Source: Escherichia phage vB_EcoM_NBG1. From it: a stretch of 64,000 bases of DNA. Positions 2,828 to 8,294 of the stretch are shown piece after piece. The DNA lies in sequence record MH243438.1; one strand, written 5' to 3'. The notes under the pieces are model-generated. The model saw only the letters and a list, made by a program, of their open reading frames with translations, was not told the DNA's origin and ran no database searches. A program made the translations under genes and the position numbers. Each line of letters begins with the position of its first letter. Positions within the stretch are counted from its first letter, which is position 1.

Positions 2828-3053
2828 CTCGGTCCCATGATTTGGCCATTAATTCGGACATAAATTCTTCAATGCGCGTTTCTTTAGATGGACTTTCACT
2901 ATTAGAGACCGCAAGTTTGTAATCTGCAATAGGACAGAACATATCAAGGTCCATATTAAGGTCGTCTTTGATTTTTTCTTCTGACACATCTTTATCGTAT
3001 GTGTACAGATAACTATCACATGATTCTGATTTAATGTAAATTGCTATACTCAT
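2817..3053 (-). CDS. hypothetical protein
   Basis: ORF with internal ATG 3053 (MSIAIY) 9 nt after AGGA; ATGA overlap with upstream gene stop. Confidence 0.5.
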   Translation of the reverse strand: MSIAIYIKSESCDSYLYTYDKDVSEEKIKDDLNMDLDMFCPIADYKLAVSNSESPSKETRIEEFMSELMAKSWDRDDE

Positions 3054-3541
3054 CTCAAATTCCTGCATTCGGTAATAAAACGTTCAACTTCATTATTCTT
3101 GGCCTTTATCTTGTCTTTACGTTCCTGTAAACTACTTTTAACAAGATTAATAATGATGCCTACAGTACCGCCGCCAATGATGCCGCCAACAACACTTATG
3201 ATAATAGATGCTAATAAGATAGCAATAATATCAACAAAACCGAAAGAACTCACCTTAGTACTAAAAAACCATACCGACGGTACAAATATAATCCATCCTG
3301 TTATCCATTGGCACTTATTGAAAAACTTTTCAAGCTCAGCTTGAGTTGTTCGTATTACTTCATCGATAGGTTGATATCCATTAATGTATCTGTTCACGAT
3401 AATACCTGCTGGCTGGTCGATTTTAAATTCTTGGCAAATATGTTTCACTAAGTAGGATGGACATCCTGTCCAATCTACTGAATAGTATGAAATACCTTCG
3501 TTGCCATCGTCTATATTAGACCAATATGTTTTGTTAATCAT
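3050..3541 (-). CDS. hypothetical membrane protein with C-terminal FITECR tail
   Basis: Two hydrophobic segments (WITGWIIFVPSVWFF; FVDIIAILLASIIISVVGGIIGGG); C-terminal ...ERFITECRNLR. Confidence 0.55.
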   Translation of the reverse strand: MINKTYWSNIDDGNEGISYYSVDWTGCPSYLVKHICQEFKIDQPAGIIVNRYINGYQPIDEVIRTTQAELEKFFNKCQWITGWIIFVPSVWFFSTKVSSFGFVDIIAILLASIIISVVGGIIGGGTVGIIINLVKSSLQERKDKIKAKNNEVERFITECRNLR

Positions 3542-4227
3542 TACCAGCCTTCCATAGGGAATTCCAGATAAACTTGAGCATTGACACGAATTTCATTGGT
3601 AATCTTTTTAACTCGGTCTGTATTACGAGATACACGTCCGAACCAACGCCATCCGTTACTAATTGCACGAGAACCAGTGTGCCATGTTTGCCAATCAAAC
3701 TGAAGAAGAGTACGATCTGGAGCTTCCCATTTCTCTAGTTCACCTTTTTCAATTTTTTCGAGGACTTCTTTGTGCCACTGGCGATAGATAAGTTCGCCAT
3801 CAGGAATCTGACTGAACTCTGCAGTTCCTGTTGCAAAATGAGTAGGACACACGTCAGCGTTAACAAGACCAAGAATATGTTCAGAATGGTAACGAGGGTT
3901 GTCATAGTCAGGTTGTCCTGCAGTAATAAAGTGTTGACCAACTGGAATATCAGGGCGAGGAACATCATCATGGTGGTATCCAGGAATAGCAGGATACCAA
4001 CCAGGCATCAGCATATGAACCCGAGAATCAAATACAACATGTTGATTAGTCCAATCAATTGGGAGATTGGCAATAAAGCTACGAGTGATTGAGCCACCAT
4101 TATCCCAAGCAAAACCCAAATCACAATTAAAGAACATTGGTTCATTTTTGATTCGGTCATTTTGTACGTTATGTGCAAAACTACCAACTGCACGAGCTTG
4201 ACTATTAAAAGTTTTAGAACTATTCAT
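3541..4227 (-). CDS. hypothetical protein, possible Fe(II)/2-oxoglutarate dioxygenase-like
   Basis: 228 aa; H85-H86-D87 ... H183 ... R198-V-S pattern resembles HxD...H...RxS triad; not verified by any search. Confidence 0.3.
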   Translation of the reverse strand: MNSSKTFNSQARAVGSFAHNVQNDRIKNEPMFFNCDLGFAWDNGGSITRSFIANLPIDWTNQHVVFDSRVHMLMPGWYPAIPGYHHDDVPRPDIPVGQHFITAGQPDYDNPRYHSEHILGLVNADVCPTHFATGTAEFSQIPDGELIYRQWHKEVLEKIEKGELEKWEAPDRTLLQFDWQTWHTGSRAISNGWRWFGRVSRNTDRVKKITNEIRVNAQVYLEFPMEGW

Positions 4228-4228
4228 A

Positions 4229-4534
4229 TTATTTTCCTCGACATTCTTTAATGAAATTTTCTAGATTGGTAGATTCAATAGCTTTTTTACGAGCTTCTGC
4301 ATGTTCTTCTTCAGACAATTTACATTTATAATTAACCCAGACATTATGGTCGAAACTAGTCGTGGCATATAATAACAATGCTCCAACGAATAGCAAAAAC
4401 GGCGATAAGAATACAAAACCAGGAACACCATCCATATCGTAAGCCTTTTGTAATACTGCAACAGAAAGAGCTGCGTAAAAAGGTGATGCAAATATTGTTA
4501 AAAGACCAATTCGGTTGGTTTCGCCTAATTTCAT
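4229..4534 (-). CDS. hypothetical small membrane protein with C-terminal ENFIKECR tail
   Basis: Two hydrophobic segments; C-terminal ...LENFIKECRGK; SD GAGGAGAA upstream; 1-nt spacer to next gene. Confidence 0.55.
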   Translation of the reverse strand: MKLGETNRIGLLTIFASPFYAALSVAVLQKAYDMDGVPGFVFLSPFLLFVGALLLYATTSFDHNVWVNYKCKLSEEEHAEARKKAIESTNLENFIKECRGK

Positions 4535-4592
4535 AATATTCTCCTCATGTTTTAATAGGACTACTATAATATATCCCTATCAGTTTGTACAC
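4535..4592 (-). promoter_or_regulatory. early promoter/stem-loop cassette (GTGTAC -35 variant, TATAAT/TATAGT -10, ATAGG...CCTAT inverted repeat)
   Basis: Minus-strand reading: GTGTACAAACTGATAGGGATATATTATAGTAGTCCTATTAAAACATGAGGAGAATATTATG. Confidence 0.55.
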
Positions 4593-4793
4593 TTATTTTG
4601 ACATTTCTTCGATGTCACGACGATACCCATCACGAACTTCACGAAGAGCTTCAAGGCCACACATAGGCTCGATACCAGTAATGTGAACTTGATTAATCTG
4701 ATACTCTACATCTTCTAACTGAGCGAAAACATAACGACGTTCTGCTGCACAACCGGGTTTAGCTTTACCGAAACGTTTATTCAAAGTAGTCAT
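4593..4793 (-). CDS. hypothetical protein
   Basis: Internal ATG 4793 (MTTLNKRFGK) preceded by GGAG; cassette upstream. Confidence 0.5.
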   Translation of the reverse strand: MTTLNKRFGKAKPGCAAERRYVFAQLEDVEYQINQVHITGIEPMCGLEALREVRDGYRRDIEEMSK

Positions 4794-4873
4794 TTTTATA
4801 TCTCCATTCACTCATTTGTTTTGATAGGTCTATAGTATCAACAACTACAGACCTTGTAAACTGTTTTGTGAAA
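4794..4873 (-). promoter_or_regulatory. early promoter/stem-loop cassette
   Basis: Minus-strand: CACAAAACAGTTTACAAGGTCTGTAGTTGTTGATACTATAGACCTATCAAAACAAATGAGTGAATGGAGATATAAAAATG; GGTCT...AGACC inverted repeat. Confidence 0.55.
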
Positions 4874-5830
4874 TTATTTGAAAGGTTTTACCATATGAAA
4901 GTTTTGTTTGAAACGCTTGACGTAATCGTCGTGTCCTAAGCTTTGGTACATACTTACTACTTTGCTATAATTTTCCCAAGCGAACTCACGGAACCATCCT
5001 GATGTGATTGATGTACAGACCTTTTCAAGGGCCATCATAAAACTATCACGTGGATGGATTTTAAAGTCGTTAGGAATCTGTGAACGTTCAAGAGCTAATA
5101 CACAAGCTTCTTCATATACACCGGCTAATTTAACCATTTCTGGTAATGATTTGAACTTCTCGCGTGATGTCATAACTTCTGAGCCTTCTTTCATATAAAA
5201 CTTATAAGCAGGCTGGTCAGTTAGTGCAATGGCTTCATGAATAGTATCATGGTCATATGTATAGATGTCATCTTTAAAGAACGCACTTTTAGAAGTGTCA
5301 AGAACTGGGTGAGCATAATTCAAGGTTTCTTTCTGGCGTTTCAGCATAATTTCAGTAAGTTCATCGTTCAGTGTAACACCTTTACCACGAAGATACTGAA
5401 TATGATTCATAGTCTTTAAAAAGAATGGATTATTTTTCTTGAAACGATGAGACATCTTAATTGCAAGACATATCTCGGGAGTTGCCCAGTAAAACCCGTT
5501 CAAACGGTCTTTAGTCAAATTTTTCTTGGCGTATTTTAAAAGGTCATAAGAAGACGTGAAATCTTCAGGAGTGAGTTCACCAACTAATTCACGGACATTA
5601 GTGATTGCCGGAACAATATATGCTTCAAAATGAGTTTCGCGTCCATTATGGAAGCATTTGAAAACTTGGACGTCAGGGTTATCTTGGTGAACGTATACAC
5701 CCATCATTTGATTTTTGAATGCATTCCAAGAACATTGGTCCGCAATAAAATCCCAATCACTATTTTTGATAGCGCTAGAATCAATAAGACCATGATAGTG
5801 AAGTGCACGAGAACCAATAACTAACATCAT
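4874..5830 (-). CDS. hypothetical protein, possible nucleotidyltransferase fold
   Basis: 318 aa; N-terminal VIGSRALHYHGLIDSSAIKNSDWDFIA resembles GS...DxD of Pol-beta-type NTases but spacing is atypical; SD GAGGAA. Confidence 0.3.
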   Translation of the reverse strand: MMLVIGSRALHYHGLIDSSAIKNSDWDFIADQCSWNAFKNQMMGVYVHQDNPDVQVFKCFHNGRETHFEAYIVPAITNVRELVGELTPEDFTSSYDLLKYAKKNLTKDRLNGFYWATPEICLAIKMSHRFKKNNPFFLKTMNHIQYLRGKGVTLNDELTEIMLKRQKETLNYAHPVLDTSKSAFFKDDIYTYDHDTIHEAIALTDQPAYKFYMKEGSEVMTSREKFKSLPEMVKLAGVYEEACVLALERSQIPNDFKIHPRDSFMMALEKVCTSITSGWFREFAWENYSKVVSMYQSLGHDDYVKRFKQNFHMVKPFK

Positions 5831-5855
5831 AATAATTTCCTCGAATTTAGATTAC

Positions 5856-6095
5856 TTAAATTTCACGACATGCGATATTATATTCATCCCAGAGGTCATC
5901 ATGTGAAGCCTCTACCAATGGAACGATTGTACCGTTTATGTCTTCATTATAAGGGCAAATTGTACAGTGCGCATCTTCGAATCGGATGCCTTTGTGTTCA
6001 GATTTTTTATAACGCATATCGAATATCTTTGCAAACTTTTCACGAGTAATAGTTTTAGCAACCACTTTGGTTCCGATACTTTCGTAATAAATCAT
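5856..6095 (-). CDS. hypothetical protein
   Basis: Internal ATG 6095 (MIYYESIG) 8 nt after GGAG; contains HCTICPY; C-terminal ...NIACREI. Confidence 0.5.
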   Translation of the reverse strand: MIYYESIGTKVVAKTITREKFAKIFDMRYKKSEHKGIRFEDAHCTICPYNEDINGTIVPLVEASHDDLWDEYNIACREI

Positions 6096-6157
6096 TGTGG
6101 ACTCCATTTGTTTTGATAGGACTACTATAACATAGCCCTATCTTGTTGTAAACTGTT
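6096..6157 (-). promoter_or_regulatory. early promoter/stem-loop cassette
   Basis: Minus-strand: AACAGTTTACAACAAGATAGGGCTATGTTATAGTAGTCCTATCAAAACAAATGGAGTCCACAATG; -35 GTTTAC, -10 TATAGT, 18-nt spacer. Confidence 0.6.
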
Positions 6158-6355
6158 TTAGCAAGAATAACTAGATGATACCCAGCCTTGAACAGTGATA
6201 CTATTGTGGGATAATGAGATCGCGTCCTGGAGATTCAGACCTGCGTTATCTTCAATCCATAATGTAACTTCTTCGCGTTCTTCTGTTGCAATTTGGAACA
6301 GGTTTTCCAGAGCAGCTACTGCCGTACGTACAGCACAATCTAATTCACGAGACAT
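6158..6355 (-). CDS. small protein, paralog family with C-terminal GWVSSS..C
   Basis: 65 aa ending ...VQGWVSSSYSC; third of three tandem paralogs. Confidence 0.55.
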   Translation of the reverse strand: MSRELDCAVRTAVAALENLFQIATEEREEVTLWIEDNAGLNLQDAISLSHNSITVQGWVSSSYSC

Positions 6356-6364
6356 ATTGTTTCC

Positions 6365-6637
6365 TTAGCAAGTGTGAGAAGATGCGACCCAACCACCAGT
6401 TTCGAGGCTCAGGTTGTAGTCGTATTGGTAAACGTCAGCCCATTCAGCATAGCCGTTTTTTGTACAACGTTCAAGATCGGCTTTAAGATGTCCGGGTGAA
6501 TGATAGGTTCCACCCATACCATAAGCTGGATACAAGTCGAATGTTGTGTTTTGTTTATCAGCAATTTCTTTGGCAGCCTCAATAGCTGCATAGATTTTTG
6601 CTACAGCTTCAGCCAGTTCGGTTTGTTCTTTAGACAT
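6365..6637 (-). CDS. small protein, paralog family with C-terminal GWVASS..C
   Basis: 90 aa ending ...ETGGWVASSHTC; junction TGCTAAGGAAACAATATG to next gene. Confidence 0.55.
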   Translation of the reverse strand: MSKEQTELAEAVAKIYAAIEAAKEIADKQNTTFDLYPAYGMGGTYHSPGHLKADLERCTKNGYAEWADVYQYDYNLSLETGGWVASSHTC

Positions 6638-6646
6638 AATGATTCC

Positions 6647-6952
6647 TTAGCACAACGCAGAAGACGAAACCCAAGCACCTTCAGTAATAACGTAACCGTT
6701 ACCTTCACGCTTAACATCGCCACCATTATTTTCAATTTCATCTTTCATCCACTGGGATACGATTTCACCCTTAGGATAATAAGTACGACCACTACCATAA
6801 TCACCTACAGAAAATGATACAGCATATTGGTCTGCGATCTTTGTTGCTTCTTCTTCGATACGTTCAGCTTGATTCAGAAGTTTATAAATTGCATCTGAAG
6901 CGGATTTGGCATCATTAAACTCTGGTACTTTAATTTCAATAATCTTACTCAT
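6647..6952 (-). CDS. small protein, paralog family with C-terminal AWVSSS..C
   Basis: 101 aa ending ...TEGAWVSSSALC; junction TGCTAAGGAATCATTATG. Confidence 0.55.
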   Translation of the reverse strand: MSKIIEIKVPEFNDAKSASDAIYKLLNQAERIEEEATKIADQYAVSFSVGDYGSGRTYYPKGEIVSQWMKDEIENNGGDVKREGNGYVITEGAWVSSSALC

Positions 6953-7308
6953 TTTCTACATTCCTTAATAAAGTTTTCGATTGTTTCATTTTCACGTTTA
7001 GCTAGGAGTTCATTATAACTAATCATTTGAGAAGCGTAAACCTTTTTATTTTTCTTGTTATGGTTTATAAAATCGTAGTAAAAATAGACCACAGTACAAA
7101 ATGATGCGATGGATGCAAAGGCTTGGGTATACCGTAAGTCCTGCCATTGGTCTGTGAATCCACCGGTATTCCCTATAAATCCTAACACAACTCCGTCAAT
7201 AAGAAATCCAACTAATCCAAAGGCAAATCCCATGCCAATACTCATAATAAAAATTAGAATGTTCTCGCCGAGAGAAGGCCGAACAGTTAAGAGTTTAGGT
7301 TTTTGCAT
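6949..7308 (-). CDS. hypothetical membrane protein with C-terminal ENFIKECR tail
   Basis: Hydrophobic segments (ILIFIMSIGMGFAFGLVGFLIDGVVLGFIG; FASIASFCTVVYFYY); C-terminal ...IENFIKECRK. Confidence 0.55.
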   Translation of the reverse strand: MQKPKLLTVRPSLGENILIFIMSIGMGFAFGLVGFLIDGVVLGFIGNTGGFTDQWQDLRYTQAFASIASFCTVVYFYYDFINHNKKNKKVYASQMISYNELLAKRENETIENFIKECRK

Positions 7309-7682
7309 CTTATTTCCTTAACGAATTCCATAGCTTCTTCGTATTCGTACTTTTTAACAGCTTCGTCATACTGAGCTTGGGCTTTTGCGCACTGAACTTT
7401 CCATTCGCGTACTCGAGCTCTATAATGACGTCCTTGGTACCAATATCCCACCCAGTTAATAGGCATTAATAAAAATGGCACAATAAACGACCCGGCTATA
7501 ATAAGTAAAAACACTGCATCAGACGATATAACTTCACTAGAATCTAAAACAGCTCCTATAATCATAAAGATTAAAAATGCTAAAGCTAAAATAGGGCCAA
7601 ATAGTACTTCGTTTGGGATTAATTTACGTTTGTATTCGTATGCCCAGGGCTTAATTGGTTGATAAAGGGTTGGCTTTGACAT
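7287..7682 (-). CDS. hypothetical membrane protein with degenerate C-terminal EFVKEIRC tail
   Basis: Start moved to ATG 7682 (MSKPTLYQ); two hydrophobic segments; 3' end overlaps next gene start by 22 nt. Confidence 0.5.
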   Translation of the reverse strand: MSKPTLYQPIKPWAYEYKRKLIPNEVLFGPILALAFLIFMIIGAVLDSSEVISSDAVFLLIIAGSFIVPFLLMPINWVGYWYQGRHYRARVREWKVQCAKAQAQYDEAVKKYEYEEAMEFVKEIRCKNLNS

Positions 7683-8253
7683 ATTCTCTACATTCCATAA
7701 TAAATTGCTCAAGGATTAAATTGTTAGTGAAATTAGGACTAACAACCATAGTTTCATAAAGCGCATCAATAGCACTTAAAGCATCAACTCTCTTAAGCAA
7801 AGGCTTGCCTTCATACATAGTTTCAGAATCGACGATTAAAGTGAAGTAGTATTTTTTATTATTGACCAGAACTTCTGTATCAATATAAAACATGTTAGAC
7901 CTCAGAAGCTTATCTCTAAAACCATAATAATCTTTAGAGCGTTCGCTGATATATTCCCATTCAGTGTTTAAACAACAAACAGACCATGTAGGAGCAACGA
8001 AATCGGTGAATCTAATATCATGGTCTGCAACTAGTTTAGCAATAGCTCCGATATCATGAATCATAATACCTGGGGTTAATAAAGATTTTCTGCTATGGCT
8101 AGCCGTTTTCTCAGTAGTCTCATAAGAAGACGACCAGTACCATTTACGTCCAGTTGCAACATATCGTAATGAATCAACTAAAGACGTAGGTGGATTTACC
8201 TTATCTCGGAACTCTTCGAACATTGAGTCAATATCATTATTTTGGTTTCGCAT
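7651..8253 (-). CDS. hypothetical protein with C-terminal QFIMECRE motif
   Basis: Start at ATG 8253 (MRNQNN) 6 nt after AAGGAG; no obvious TM segment; motif 13 aa from the C-terminus. Confidence 0.5.
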   Translation of the reverse strand: MRNQNNDIDSMFEEFRDKVNPPTSLVDSLRYVATGRKWYWSSSYETTEKTASHSRKSLLTPGIMIHDIGAIAKLVADHDIRFTDFVAPTWSVCCLNTEWEYISERSKDYYGFRDKLLRSNMFYIDTEVLVNNKKYYFTLIVDSETMYEGKPLLKRVDALSAIDALYETMVVSPNFTNNLILEQFIMECREYVKANPLSTN

Positions 8254-8270
8254 GTTAACTCCTTTATTAT

Positions 8271-8294
8271 CCAAAAGGAGGACCGGAGTCCTCC
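8271..8294 (-). terminator. rho-independent terminator-like hairpin (GGAGGAC-loop-GTCCTCC then UUUU)
   Basis: 7-bp GC-rich stem followed by T-run on the minus strand, 9 nt downstream of stop at 8303 and ~18 nt before the next ATG. Confidence 0.55.

Follow-up and report, generated by a model that had tools for sequence, protein, structure and literature searches.

A phage gene with a nucleotidyltransferase fold and its linkage to small proteins ending in W-x-x-S-S-x-x-Cys: a possible two-component module

Is the 318 amino acid (aa) open reading frame at positions 4874–5830 (minus strand) of the DNA of Escherichia phage vB_EcoM_NBG1 (sequence record MH243438.1) a nucleotidyltransferase (NTase), and if so, upon what does it act? 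The stretch analyzed, termed here the window, is 64,000 nucleotides (nt) long. Residues 4–30 of the translated sequence are VIGSRALHYHGLIDSSAIKNSDWDFIA, identical to the string quoted in an earlier note made from the sequence, which had given the same length and position. That note saw in this string a resemblance to NTases of the DNA polymerase beta (Pol-beta) superfamily and treated the gene as an isolated accessory gene. The analysis supports the first of these proposals and replaces the second. The gene apparently encodes a catalytically intact, two-lobed Pol-beta superfamily NTase, as judged from sequence and a predicted structure. In addition, it may be one component of a conserved module found in phages, whose other component is a set of small acidic folded partner proteins with hypervariable bodies and an invariant tail, and the NTase would modify the partner tail. 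This last reading is tentative and is given a probability of about 0.4.

The features of the enzyme gene are as follows. Conservation counts here and below refer to 142 relatives, i.e. representatives of clusters formed at 50% identity.

4874..5830, minus strand: gene of the two-lobed nucleotidyltransferase (DUF7277 and DUF7275, PHROG 2141)
5528..5827, minus strand: N-lobe, Pol-beta NTase catalytic core (DUF7277), aa 2–101
5810..5815, minus strand: codons of G6-S7, hG[GS] motif (G in 142/142, S in 139/142)
5750..5758, minus strand: codons of D25-W26-D27, metal-binding DxD (plus-strand letters atcccaatc, reverse complement GATTGGGAT)
5624..5626, minus strand: codon of E69, third catalytic carboxylate (E in 124/142, D in 15/142)
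4916..5473, minus strand: C-lobe, helical DUF7275 domain, aa 120–305, the most conserved part of the protein
5447..5458, minus strand: codons of K125-M-S-H128, candidate for the 'motif III' Lys of MenT/AbiEii (K125 and H128 both in 142/142)
5015..5017, minus strand: codon of C272 in the motif KVCTSITSGW (C in 139/142)

The protein displays the Pfam domains DUF7277 (aa 2–101, E-value 1.3e-27, 96.7 bits) and DUF7275 (aa 120–305, E-value 2.1e-78, 263 bits), both exceeding the 27-bit cut-off of the respective hidden Markov model (HMM), and it matches PHROG 2141 over residues 1–318 (E-value 5.8e-149, 497 bits). The two domains are found together in 138 of the relatives; neither they nor PHROG 2141 carry a functional description in their database entries. 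An AF2 (AlphaFold2) model computed from 43 sequences is confident (mean predicted local distance difference test score, pLDDT, 92.1; predicted template modelling score, pTM, 0.85) and displays the alpha/beta core fold of Pol-beta NTases. I5-G6-S7 corresponds to the hG[GS] motif and lies between strand 2–5 and helix 7–12. D25-W-D27-F corresponds to the [DE]h[DE]h motif and opens strand 26–31; D25 is present in 140 relatives (the other two have E) and D27 in all. The third conserved acidic residue, which the earlier note had left to be looked for, is E69 on strand 64–73, where 139/142 relatives are acidic. The distance between the two first motifs is longer than canonical, as had been remarked, with 17 residues between S7 and D25 in place of 9–13; the extra residues form the loop that follows helix 7–12. 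A GS...DxD pattern taken alone carries little information. However, its near-invariance in 142 relatives together with the fold match places the assignment well beyond chance.

The C-lobe has its own set of invariant residues, i.e. K125, H128, K139, T140, H194, D195, H198, E240, E241, E248, R249 and R281. The set made up of K125/H128, His-Asp-x-x-His, Glu-Glu and Glu-Arg may line the acceptor side of the cleft between the lobes. By sequence comparison, K125 would be the equivalent of MenT1 K137 (PMC10435456); D143 is conserved in at least 90% of relatives and the K125–D143 spacing is MenT-like. The C-lobe was also considered as an HD-domain phosphohydrolase, but neither the HD fold nor the H...HD...D metal site is found. 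Among the relatives there are faint matches to NTase-clan families (DUF4269, DUF6036 and AbiEii). Other searches with the window protein gave no match in PADLOC, a single spurious match in NCBIfam (HisJ, E-value 0.0095, far under its cut-off), and only chance matches in sequence searches of the Protein Data Bank (PsaB and the RNase L KEN domain, E-value 0.12).

The gene is not isolated. Three small open reading frames upstream on the same strand belong with it:

6158..6355, minus strand: partner protein 1, 65 aa, tail ...QGWVSSSYSC, PHROG 4882
6365..6637, minus strand: partner protein 2, 90 aa, internal AYGMGGTYHSP, tail ...GGWVASSHTC, PHROG 899
6647..6952, minus strand: partner protein 3, 101 aa, internal GDYGSGRTYYP, tail ...GAWVSSSALC

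The tail motif W-x-x-S-S-x-x-Cys-stop (W-SS-C) occurs in the 64-kb window in these three open reading frames only. Its association with the enzyme was followed by unbiased BLAST clustering of all open reading frames within ±5 kb of the NTase gene at 93 loci, which fall into 30 lineage groups (at least 60% target identity); retrieval of the loci was seeded on C-lobe motifs, so that the sample is biased to the long subfamily. One neighbor family is widely shared. It consists of small proteins (median 93 aa) ending in G-x-W-[VLIM]-S-S-S-x-x-C, is present in 16/30 groups, and is always upstream on the same strand. A motif scan finds a partner at 81 of the 93 loci and in 24/30 groups, and this rises to 27/30 when tails shorter by one residue (WDSSTC, WNSSDC, WDGSSC), which are situated directly upstream in three otherwise 'negative' groups, are included. 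The Cys-ending motif is displayed by 223 of 830 same-strand open reading frames in the 2.5 kb upstream, as against 16 of 5,027 others (odds ratio 115, the loci not being phylogenetically independent). Cys is at the very end of 223/233 partners (96%), there are one to five partner copies per locus, and in many lineages the gap between partner and enzyme genes is −6 to 80 nt. In the reverse direction, a profile built from 25 partners retrieves 84 proteins, mostly phage-named or unnamed metagenome entries with no Pfam domain, and all three distant matches followed up, the weakest included, have a DUF7277+DUF7275 gene 70–810 nt downstream.

The partners are acidic (median isoelectric point, pI, 4.4), and the NTase family is near-neutral (median pI 6.2). 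The partners are also highly diverse, forming 57 clusters at 55% identity and otherwise being about 25% identical. What they have in common is a helix ending in ADxxGxxF, the element YGxG(T/R)xYY, and the tail. The 101-aa partner is modelled confidently as an alpha+beta domain that matches no known fold; W94 is in its last beta-strand and SSxxC forms the terminal turn. A reading of the partners as precursors of ribosomally synthesized and post-translationally modified peptides, of lanthipeptide-like type (SxxC-COOH), is weakened by this confident fold, in which the last strand ends with the motif. The other recurrent neighbors, NadV (5/30 groups), Metallophos (4/30) and SIR2 (3/30), are too sporadic to be members of the module, and tRNA genes, which lie within 5 kb of the NTase gene in 7/30 groups and in phage ClubL, are not associated with it as a rule.

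The most divergent NTase members are about 250 aa long, e.g. KVP40.0037, Streptomyces phage Wakanda gp195 and Gordonia phage ClubL gp16, and have no W-SS-C neighbors. A profile search with this short subfamily returns two size classes, one of about 250 aa and another of about 355–417 aa. In the longer forms the enzyme is followed by an acidic linker and a C-terminal domain of the type ...GGGEGGSEYC...Y(R/K)xxYSYYSxxGY...KTITVYE-stop. This fused domain, which has no Pfam family, is homologous to separate proteins whose genes abut those of the enzymes named above (KVP40.0036, Wakanda gp196 and ClubL gp17), as well as to overlapping downstream genes at 2/3 further unfused loci. A homology between the W-SS-C partners and the YSYYS...VYE domain is not supported (hhalign probability 0.1%). 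Thus a small, acidic, Tyr/Ser-rich partner with a fixed extreme C-terminus appears to be a family-wide rule, which has been realized twice and in some members takes the form of a fusion to the enzyme. At one further locus (L106, positions 3280–3579) the stop codon of a short-subfamily enzyme gene overlaps the start codon of the next gene, which encodes a 99-aa protein faintly like the YSYYS...VYE partner (GEGEESGDIWKSYYKNGK). This protein may represent a third type of partner that has diverged further.

The short subfamily keeps the NTase triad, K125, H128, HDxxH, EE and ER, and lacks C272, H174 and R281. These three residues are kept in 85/85 partner-positive loci, and their loss is confined to loci without the W-SS-C partner; the short subfamily, which has no such partner, is also the only one to have V or I in place of C272. 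The co-variation of C272 with the partner is real but phylogenetically confounded, and is suggestive.

What does the enzyme do with its partner? The fold, the conservation of catalytic residues, the restriction to phages, the gene linkage and the partner fusion in the sister subfamily are shown, and on these we infer enzyme–partner contact, the tail as acceptor, the chemistry and a biological target. In the proposed course of events the NTase and partner genes would all be expressed early, from promoters of the T4 early type. The cleft between the enzyme lobes would dock the C-terminal tail of the partner, and a nucleoside monophosphate (NMP) would be transferred from a nucleoside triphosphate (NTP) with Mg2+ to a tail hydroxyl, Ser-4 or Ser-3 counted from the end; the Cys thiol or the terminal carboxylate would be less likely acceptors. 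Nucleotidylylation could then switch or 'arm' the diversified partners, which would act on host factors. A substrate role is favored because one enzyme has up to five hypervariable paralogs in which only the tail and YGxG are invariant, because the acceptor lobe is more conserved than the NTP lobe, and because there is ample precedent for Pol-beta NTases acting on the hydroxyls of small proteins dedicated to them. The final position of Cys in 223/233 partners and the retention of C272, H174 and R281 at all partner-positive loci point the same way. GlnE, GlnD, MntA acting on HepT, DrrA and CitX/MdcG all act on protein hydroxyls, and CitX/MdcG target a Ser of a small (about 100-aa) acidic carrier protein. 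MenT-family NTases are reported to be regulated by an auto-phosphorylation that the antitoxin can induce (PMC11375011).

Several points weigh against a substrate role. The contact between enzyme and partner, and the orientation of the C-lobe residues towards the cleft, are both deduced. The partner tail is not a floppy peptide in the confident model, where W94 is part of a beta-strand and SSxxC of the terminal turn. The structurally closest characterized enzymes, MenT1, MenT3 and MenT4, act on tRNA 3′ ends, and the regulation of MenT1 by the small upstream MenA1 (68 aa) fits an RNA-directed enzyme with protein inhibitors equally well (PMC10435456). No partner was detected within 3 kb in the long-subfamily groups 6, 8 and 23, nor at loci L027, L031 and that of phage DSS3_VP1. 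No homology is detected between the two partner families, so that the word 'partner' need not denote the same thing in both subfamilies, and the loci counted in the linkage statistics lack phylogenetic independence.

The alternatives differ chiefly in what they make of the partners. The NTase may be a MenT/AbiEii-like RNA enzyme that extends the 3′ ends of tRNA or other RNA. Its function would be to shut off the host, to repair tRNA ends, or to serve as an abortive-infection or exclusion module carried by the phage. On this view the partners would inhibit the enzyme or act as pseudo-substrates, blocking the active site or controlling when it works, and in the fused forms would be a cis auto-inhibitory domain. 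This is judged somewhat unlikely, and it is the rival with the most in its favor. MenT1 is neutralized by a 68-aa upstream-encoded protein that blocks its active sites (PMC10435456). The K125...D143 pair resembles MenT motifs III and IV on sequence grounds, one family member (1/142) weakly matches Pfam AbiEii (E-value 0.021), the acidic partners resemble many antitoxins and nucleic-acid mimics, and the tRNA genes noted in 7/30 groups and ClubL would fit. Fused toxin–antitoxin NTase-like proteins exist, e.g. CapRel. However, the window protein itself has no AbiEii/DUF1814 HMM match, only about 145 of its residues superpose on the MenT proteins, where the large conserved C-lobe has no counterpart, and the family is near-neutral rather than basic. 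A set of as many as five paralogs for one enzyme would be unusual for an antitoxin, RNA-repair genes are seldom nearby, and the family is confined to large virulent phages and is absent from cellular genomes (8 contigs of metagenome-assembled genomes, MAGs, among 185,579 species).

An enzyme that nucleotidylylates a hydroxyl of a metabolite, antibiotic or signalling molecule, or that makes or alters a nucleotide second messenger, would leave the partners separate or regulatory; it does not explain their strict directional linkage or the fusions. It is considered unlikely. The S24-D-W-D27 element is of the 'SDxD' form common to the phage NTases described by Ho et al., yet the motifs that define that family are absent, and Pfam, NCBIfam and PADLOC give no match to ANT, Lnu or CD-NTase families. 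The persistence of the universal core in short members that lack W-SS-C partners suggests that phages with widely different hosts share an acceptor, and NadV and SIR2, both NAD-related, recur loosely nearby, albeit in no more than 5/30 groups. Activation of the partner C-terminus is less probable again. Here the carboxylate of the terminal Cys would be adenylylated, with E1/ThiF- or MccB-like logic on an NTase fold, so as to prime conjugation or form a peptidyl-nucleotide, and Cys272 could serve as a thioester relay. The final position of Cys in 96% of partners, the fixed ...VYE-stop end of the second partner family and the loss of the near-invariant Cys272 where the Cys-tailed partner is absent speak for it. 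The Cys272 correlation, however, amounts to effectively one evolutionary event, some partner-less long members keep Cys272, and carboxylate adenylylation is not known to us from any NTase of the Pol-beta fold. That the fold is a catalytically dead scaffold kept only for binding, e.g. as a nucleotide sponge or structural protein, can scarcely be believed. The non-canonical DxD spacing and one deposited genome that names its homolog 'prohead assembly scaffold protein' could be read in this way. Against this, the catalytic positions are near-absolutely conserved across 142 diverse representatives, and the name stands alone and without support where hundreds of other entries read 'hypothetical protein'.

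The widest extension of the reading in which the NTase modifies the partner tail would be an undescribed protein-modification system of large virulent phages, in which the NTase modifies W-x-x-S-S-x-x-Cys tails, by nucleotidylylation or carboxylate activation, together with the tethered YSYYS...VYE domain, on a principle of 'one writer, many warheads' for host takeover or counter-defence. So broad a scheme is regarded as doubtful.

Homologs of the NTase are found by tblastn in 733 deposited phage genomes, whose hosts include Escherichia, Acinetobacter, Aeromonas, Pseudomonas, Vibrio, Klebsiella, Gordonia and Streptomyces, and an exhaustive HMMER pass over metagenomes gives 1,229 clusters at 50% identity. 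A scan of prokaryotes, with one genome for each of the 185,579 species, gives 8 loci, all on MAG contigs, and the family is thus essentially viral. 'Hypothetical' is the annotation of nearly all homologs, and 'putative nucleotidyltransferase' that of a few; the other deposited names, i.e. 'prohead assembly scaffold protein' (one genome), 'HNS-dependent protein' and 'putative antibiotic resistance protein', look like errors of annotation transfer. In a 3,050-nt Logan contig (P0054), a lipoprotein-like N-terminus (DUF1190, signal peptide and Cys) replaces the NTase lobe and DUF7275 is intact. This could be an assembly chimera or a true swap of the N-lobe. What was already known, then, is a catalogued DUF/PHROG family for which some annotators had guessed 'nucleotidyltransferase'. 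The searched literature contains no mention of DUF7275, DUF7277, PF23940 or PF23942 and no description of a phage NTase with a small protein ending in Cys. Nor are the placement beside MenT and ANT at the level of the fold, the intact triad with its non-canonical spacer, the novel conserved C-lobe, the obligate partner families and the fusions described in it.

The local layout of the gene is given by the following features. Open reading frames were called mechanically.

5838..5842, minus strand: Shine-Dalgarno sequence GAGGA, 7 nt ahead of the NTase ATG, by sequence reading
5856..6107, minus strand: 83-aa open reading frame, PHROG 3723, Cys-containing, between the partner genes and the NTase gene
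6124..6152, minus strand: T4-early-like promoter candidate TTTACA-17-TATAGT (consensus scan, 10/12 matches plus TG extension; a pattern match only)
4593–4811, minus strand: 72-aa open reading frame, PHROG 6200, downstream of the NTase gene, with a promoter-like site at 4860..4832
3541..6952, minus strand: block of about 3.4 kb and 8 genes that is missing between T4 e.2 and e.3 (tblastn of window proteins against T4 63–76 kb)
3050–3541, 4229–4534, 6949–7308, 7287–7712 and 7651–8274, all minus strand: proteins with a C-terminal 'F[IV]KECR'-like motif

The strong Shine-Dalgarno sequence that had been noted is confirmed. The promoter cassette that had been ascribed to the gene itself is only partly so: the T4-early-like site at 6152..6124 is the nearest one, yet it precedes the 83-aa open reading frame, and no promoter-like site was found in the 25-nt gap between that frame and the NTase gene. 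Because the nearest promoter candidate precedes the 83-aa open reading frame, the NTase gene is best taken as the second gene of a two-gene unit. The 83-aa frame is restricted to close relatives and is not part of the widely shared neighbor clusters; the 72-aa frame is likewise seen in close relatives only.

The window genome is a Mosigvirus (RB69-like) and is 98.8% identical to phage p000y. The NTase gene lies in the hyperplastic region, with lysozyme e and nudE on one side and tRNA genes on the other. When compared by tblastn with T4 63–76 kb, the open reading frames flanking the block are homologs of e.2, e.3, e.4, e.5 and e.6, and the 8 genes at 3541–6952 have no counterpart in that interval, the rest of T4 not having been searched. 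The absence of the gene from the corresponding T4 region, as earlier claimed, is borne out, and it is not a diverged homolog of a T4 gene of that region. Within the block is also a 228-aa protein (3541–4227, minus strand; PHROG 1843, no Pfam family) with an HHDD stretch, which is not kept beside the NTase gene in other lineages.

The small membrane-type proteins that flank the module display the C-terminal tails ENFIKECRGK, ENFIKECRK, EFVKEIRCK, EQFIMECREY and ERFITECRNL. The same type of motif is carried by T4 e.3, e.4 and e.5 (locus L105), i.e. FVIDCRK, FVKESRCK and FVKECREY, and these proteins look like a paralogous family of the e–tRNA region. In scattered lineages, genes for RNA ligase, polynucleotide kinase, phosphoesterase, DNA ligase, NadV, SIR2 and Metallophos proteins lie near the NTase gene, each in no more than 5/30 groups (loci L093 of DSS3_VP1, L094 of Wakanda, L097–L100, L002, L096 and L102–L103). 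Their proximity probably reflects a common location in accessory or early regions and does not indicate a pathway.

The significance of the locus is in the near-absolute constraint on catalytic residues in a large, virus-confined family without an assigned function. Through the pairing with partners, which may be separate, present in several copies or fused, what had been a nameless DUF becomes a two-component system that can be tested, and the linkage is the first functional context for two PHROGs of 'hypothetical' early proteins. Should the NTase modify its partners, phages would encode a new kind of post-translational chemistry, and effectors directed at the host could be sought in a new way. 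Should it act on RNA as MenT does, with the partners as inhibitors, toxin–antitoxin logic would operate inside the early programme of virulent phages. Either outcome bears on phage–host conflict and on annotation of the T-even hyperplastic region. The link to counter-defence or signalling enzymes drawn in the earlier note is an analogy.

Among known systems, RlaP (PF10127; T4 NrdC.11), which adds 1–2 NMP to the 3′-OH of RNA (PMC12776372), is likewise a stand-alone Pol-beta NTase common in T4-like and jumbo phages. However, T4 has RlaP and is without the present NTase gene in the syntenic region. The window protein has no PF10127 match at E-values up to 10, PF10127 is not among the 25 families listed of the 55 matched by the 142 relatives, which leaves room for a stray weak match at most among the other 30, and Rnl2-like and PNK-like neighbors are found in 1/30 and 2/30 groups respectively (by BLAST, of limited sensitivity). 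An assignment to RlaP is rejected on these grounds. The phage anti-TIR-STING NTases (Ho et al., bioRxiv 10.1101/2022.06.09.495361) are MNT-like and display GS-x-AY[GAN]T-x4-SDxD, followed about 60 residues on by NP-x-h2[DE]. They too are phage-encoded in accessory regions, and GS-x-A and SDxD are found in both. The window motif is GS-R-A-L-H-Y-H-G-L-I-D-S-S-A-I-K-N-SDWD, without AY[GAN]T; its GS-to-SDxD spacer is 16 and not 8, and NP-x-h2[DE] is absent, the region where it would be expected (aa ~80–95) being variable and gapped across the family. Membership in that group is thus rejected, and cyclic-dinucleotide synthesis by the window NTase is not implied.

ANT(2'')-Ia (4xje), LnuA (4wh5), TM1012 and JHP933 are among the closest known proteins and show no sequence-family match; the ANT(2'')-Ia/LnuA group is about 160–220 aa long, has no DUF7275 lobe and uses small-molecule acceptors. 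The MenT/AbiEii toxins, i.e. MenT1 (8an4), MenT3 (6j7n) and MenT4 (6y56), are structurally the closest characterized enzymes. They differ in that PF08843 (DUF1814/AbiEii/MenT) is not matched by the window protein at E-values up to 10, in that the superposition covers only ~145/318 residues, and in the larger C-lobe here with its own invariant HDxxH, EE, ER and C set. They are chromosomal toxin–antitoxin components, whereas the present family is phage-restricted and has up to five paralogous W-SS-C-tailed partners. Closest in possible working mode are MntA-HepT (a type VII toxin–antitoxin system), GlnE/GlnD, DrrA and CitX/MdcG, although these have no sequence or specific structural match to the window NTase and their partner families are unrelated. 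Such protein-modifying Pol-beta NTases place a group that contains a nucleotide on a Tyr or Ser of a small protein that is dedicated to them and linked to them genetically.

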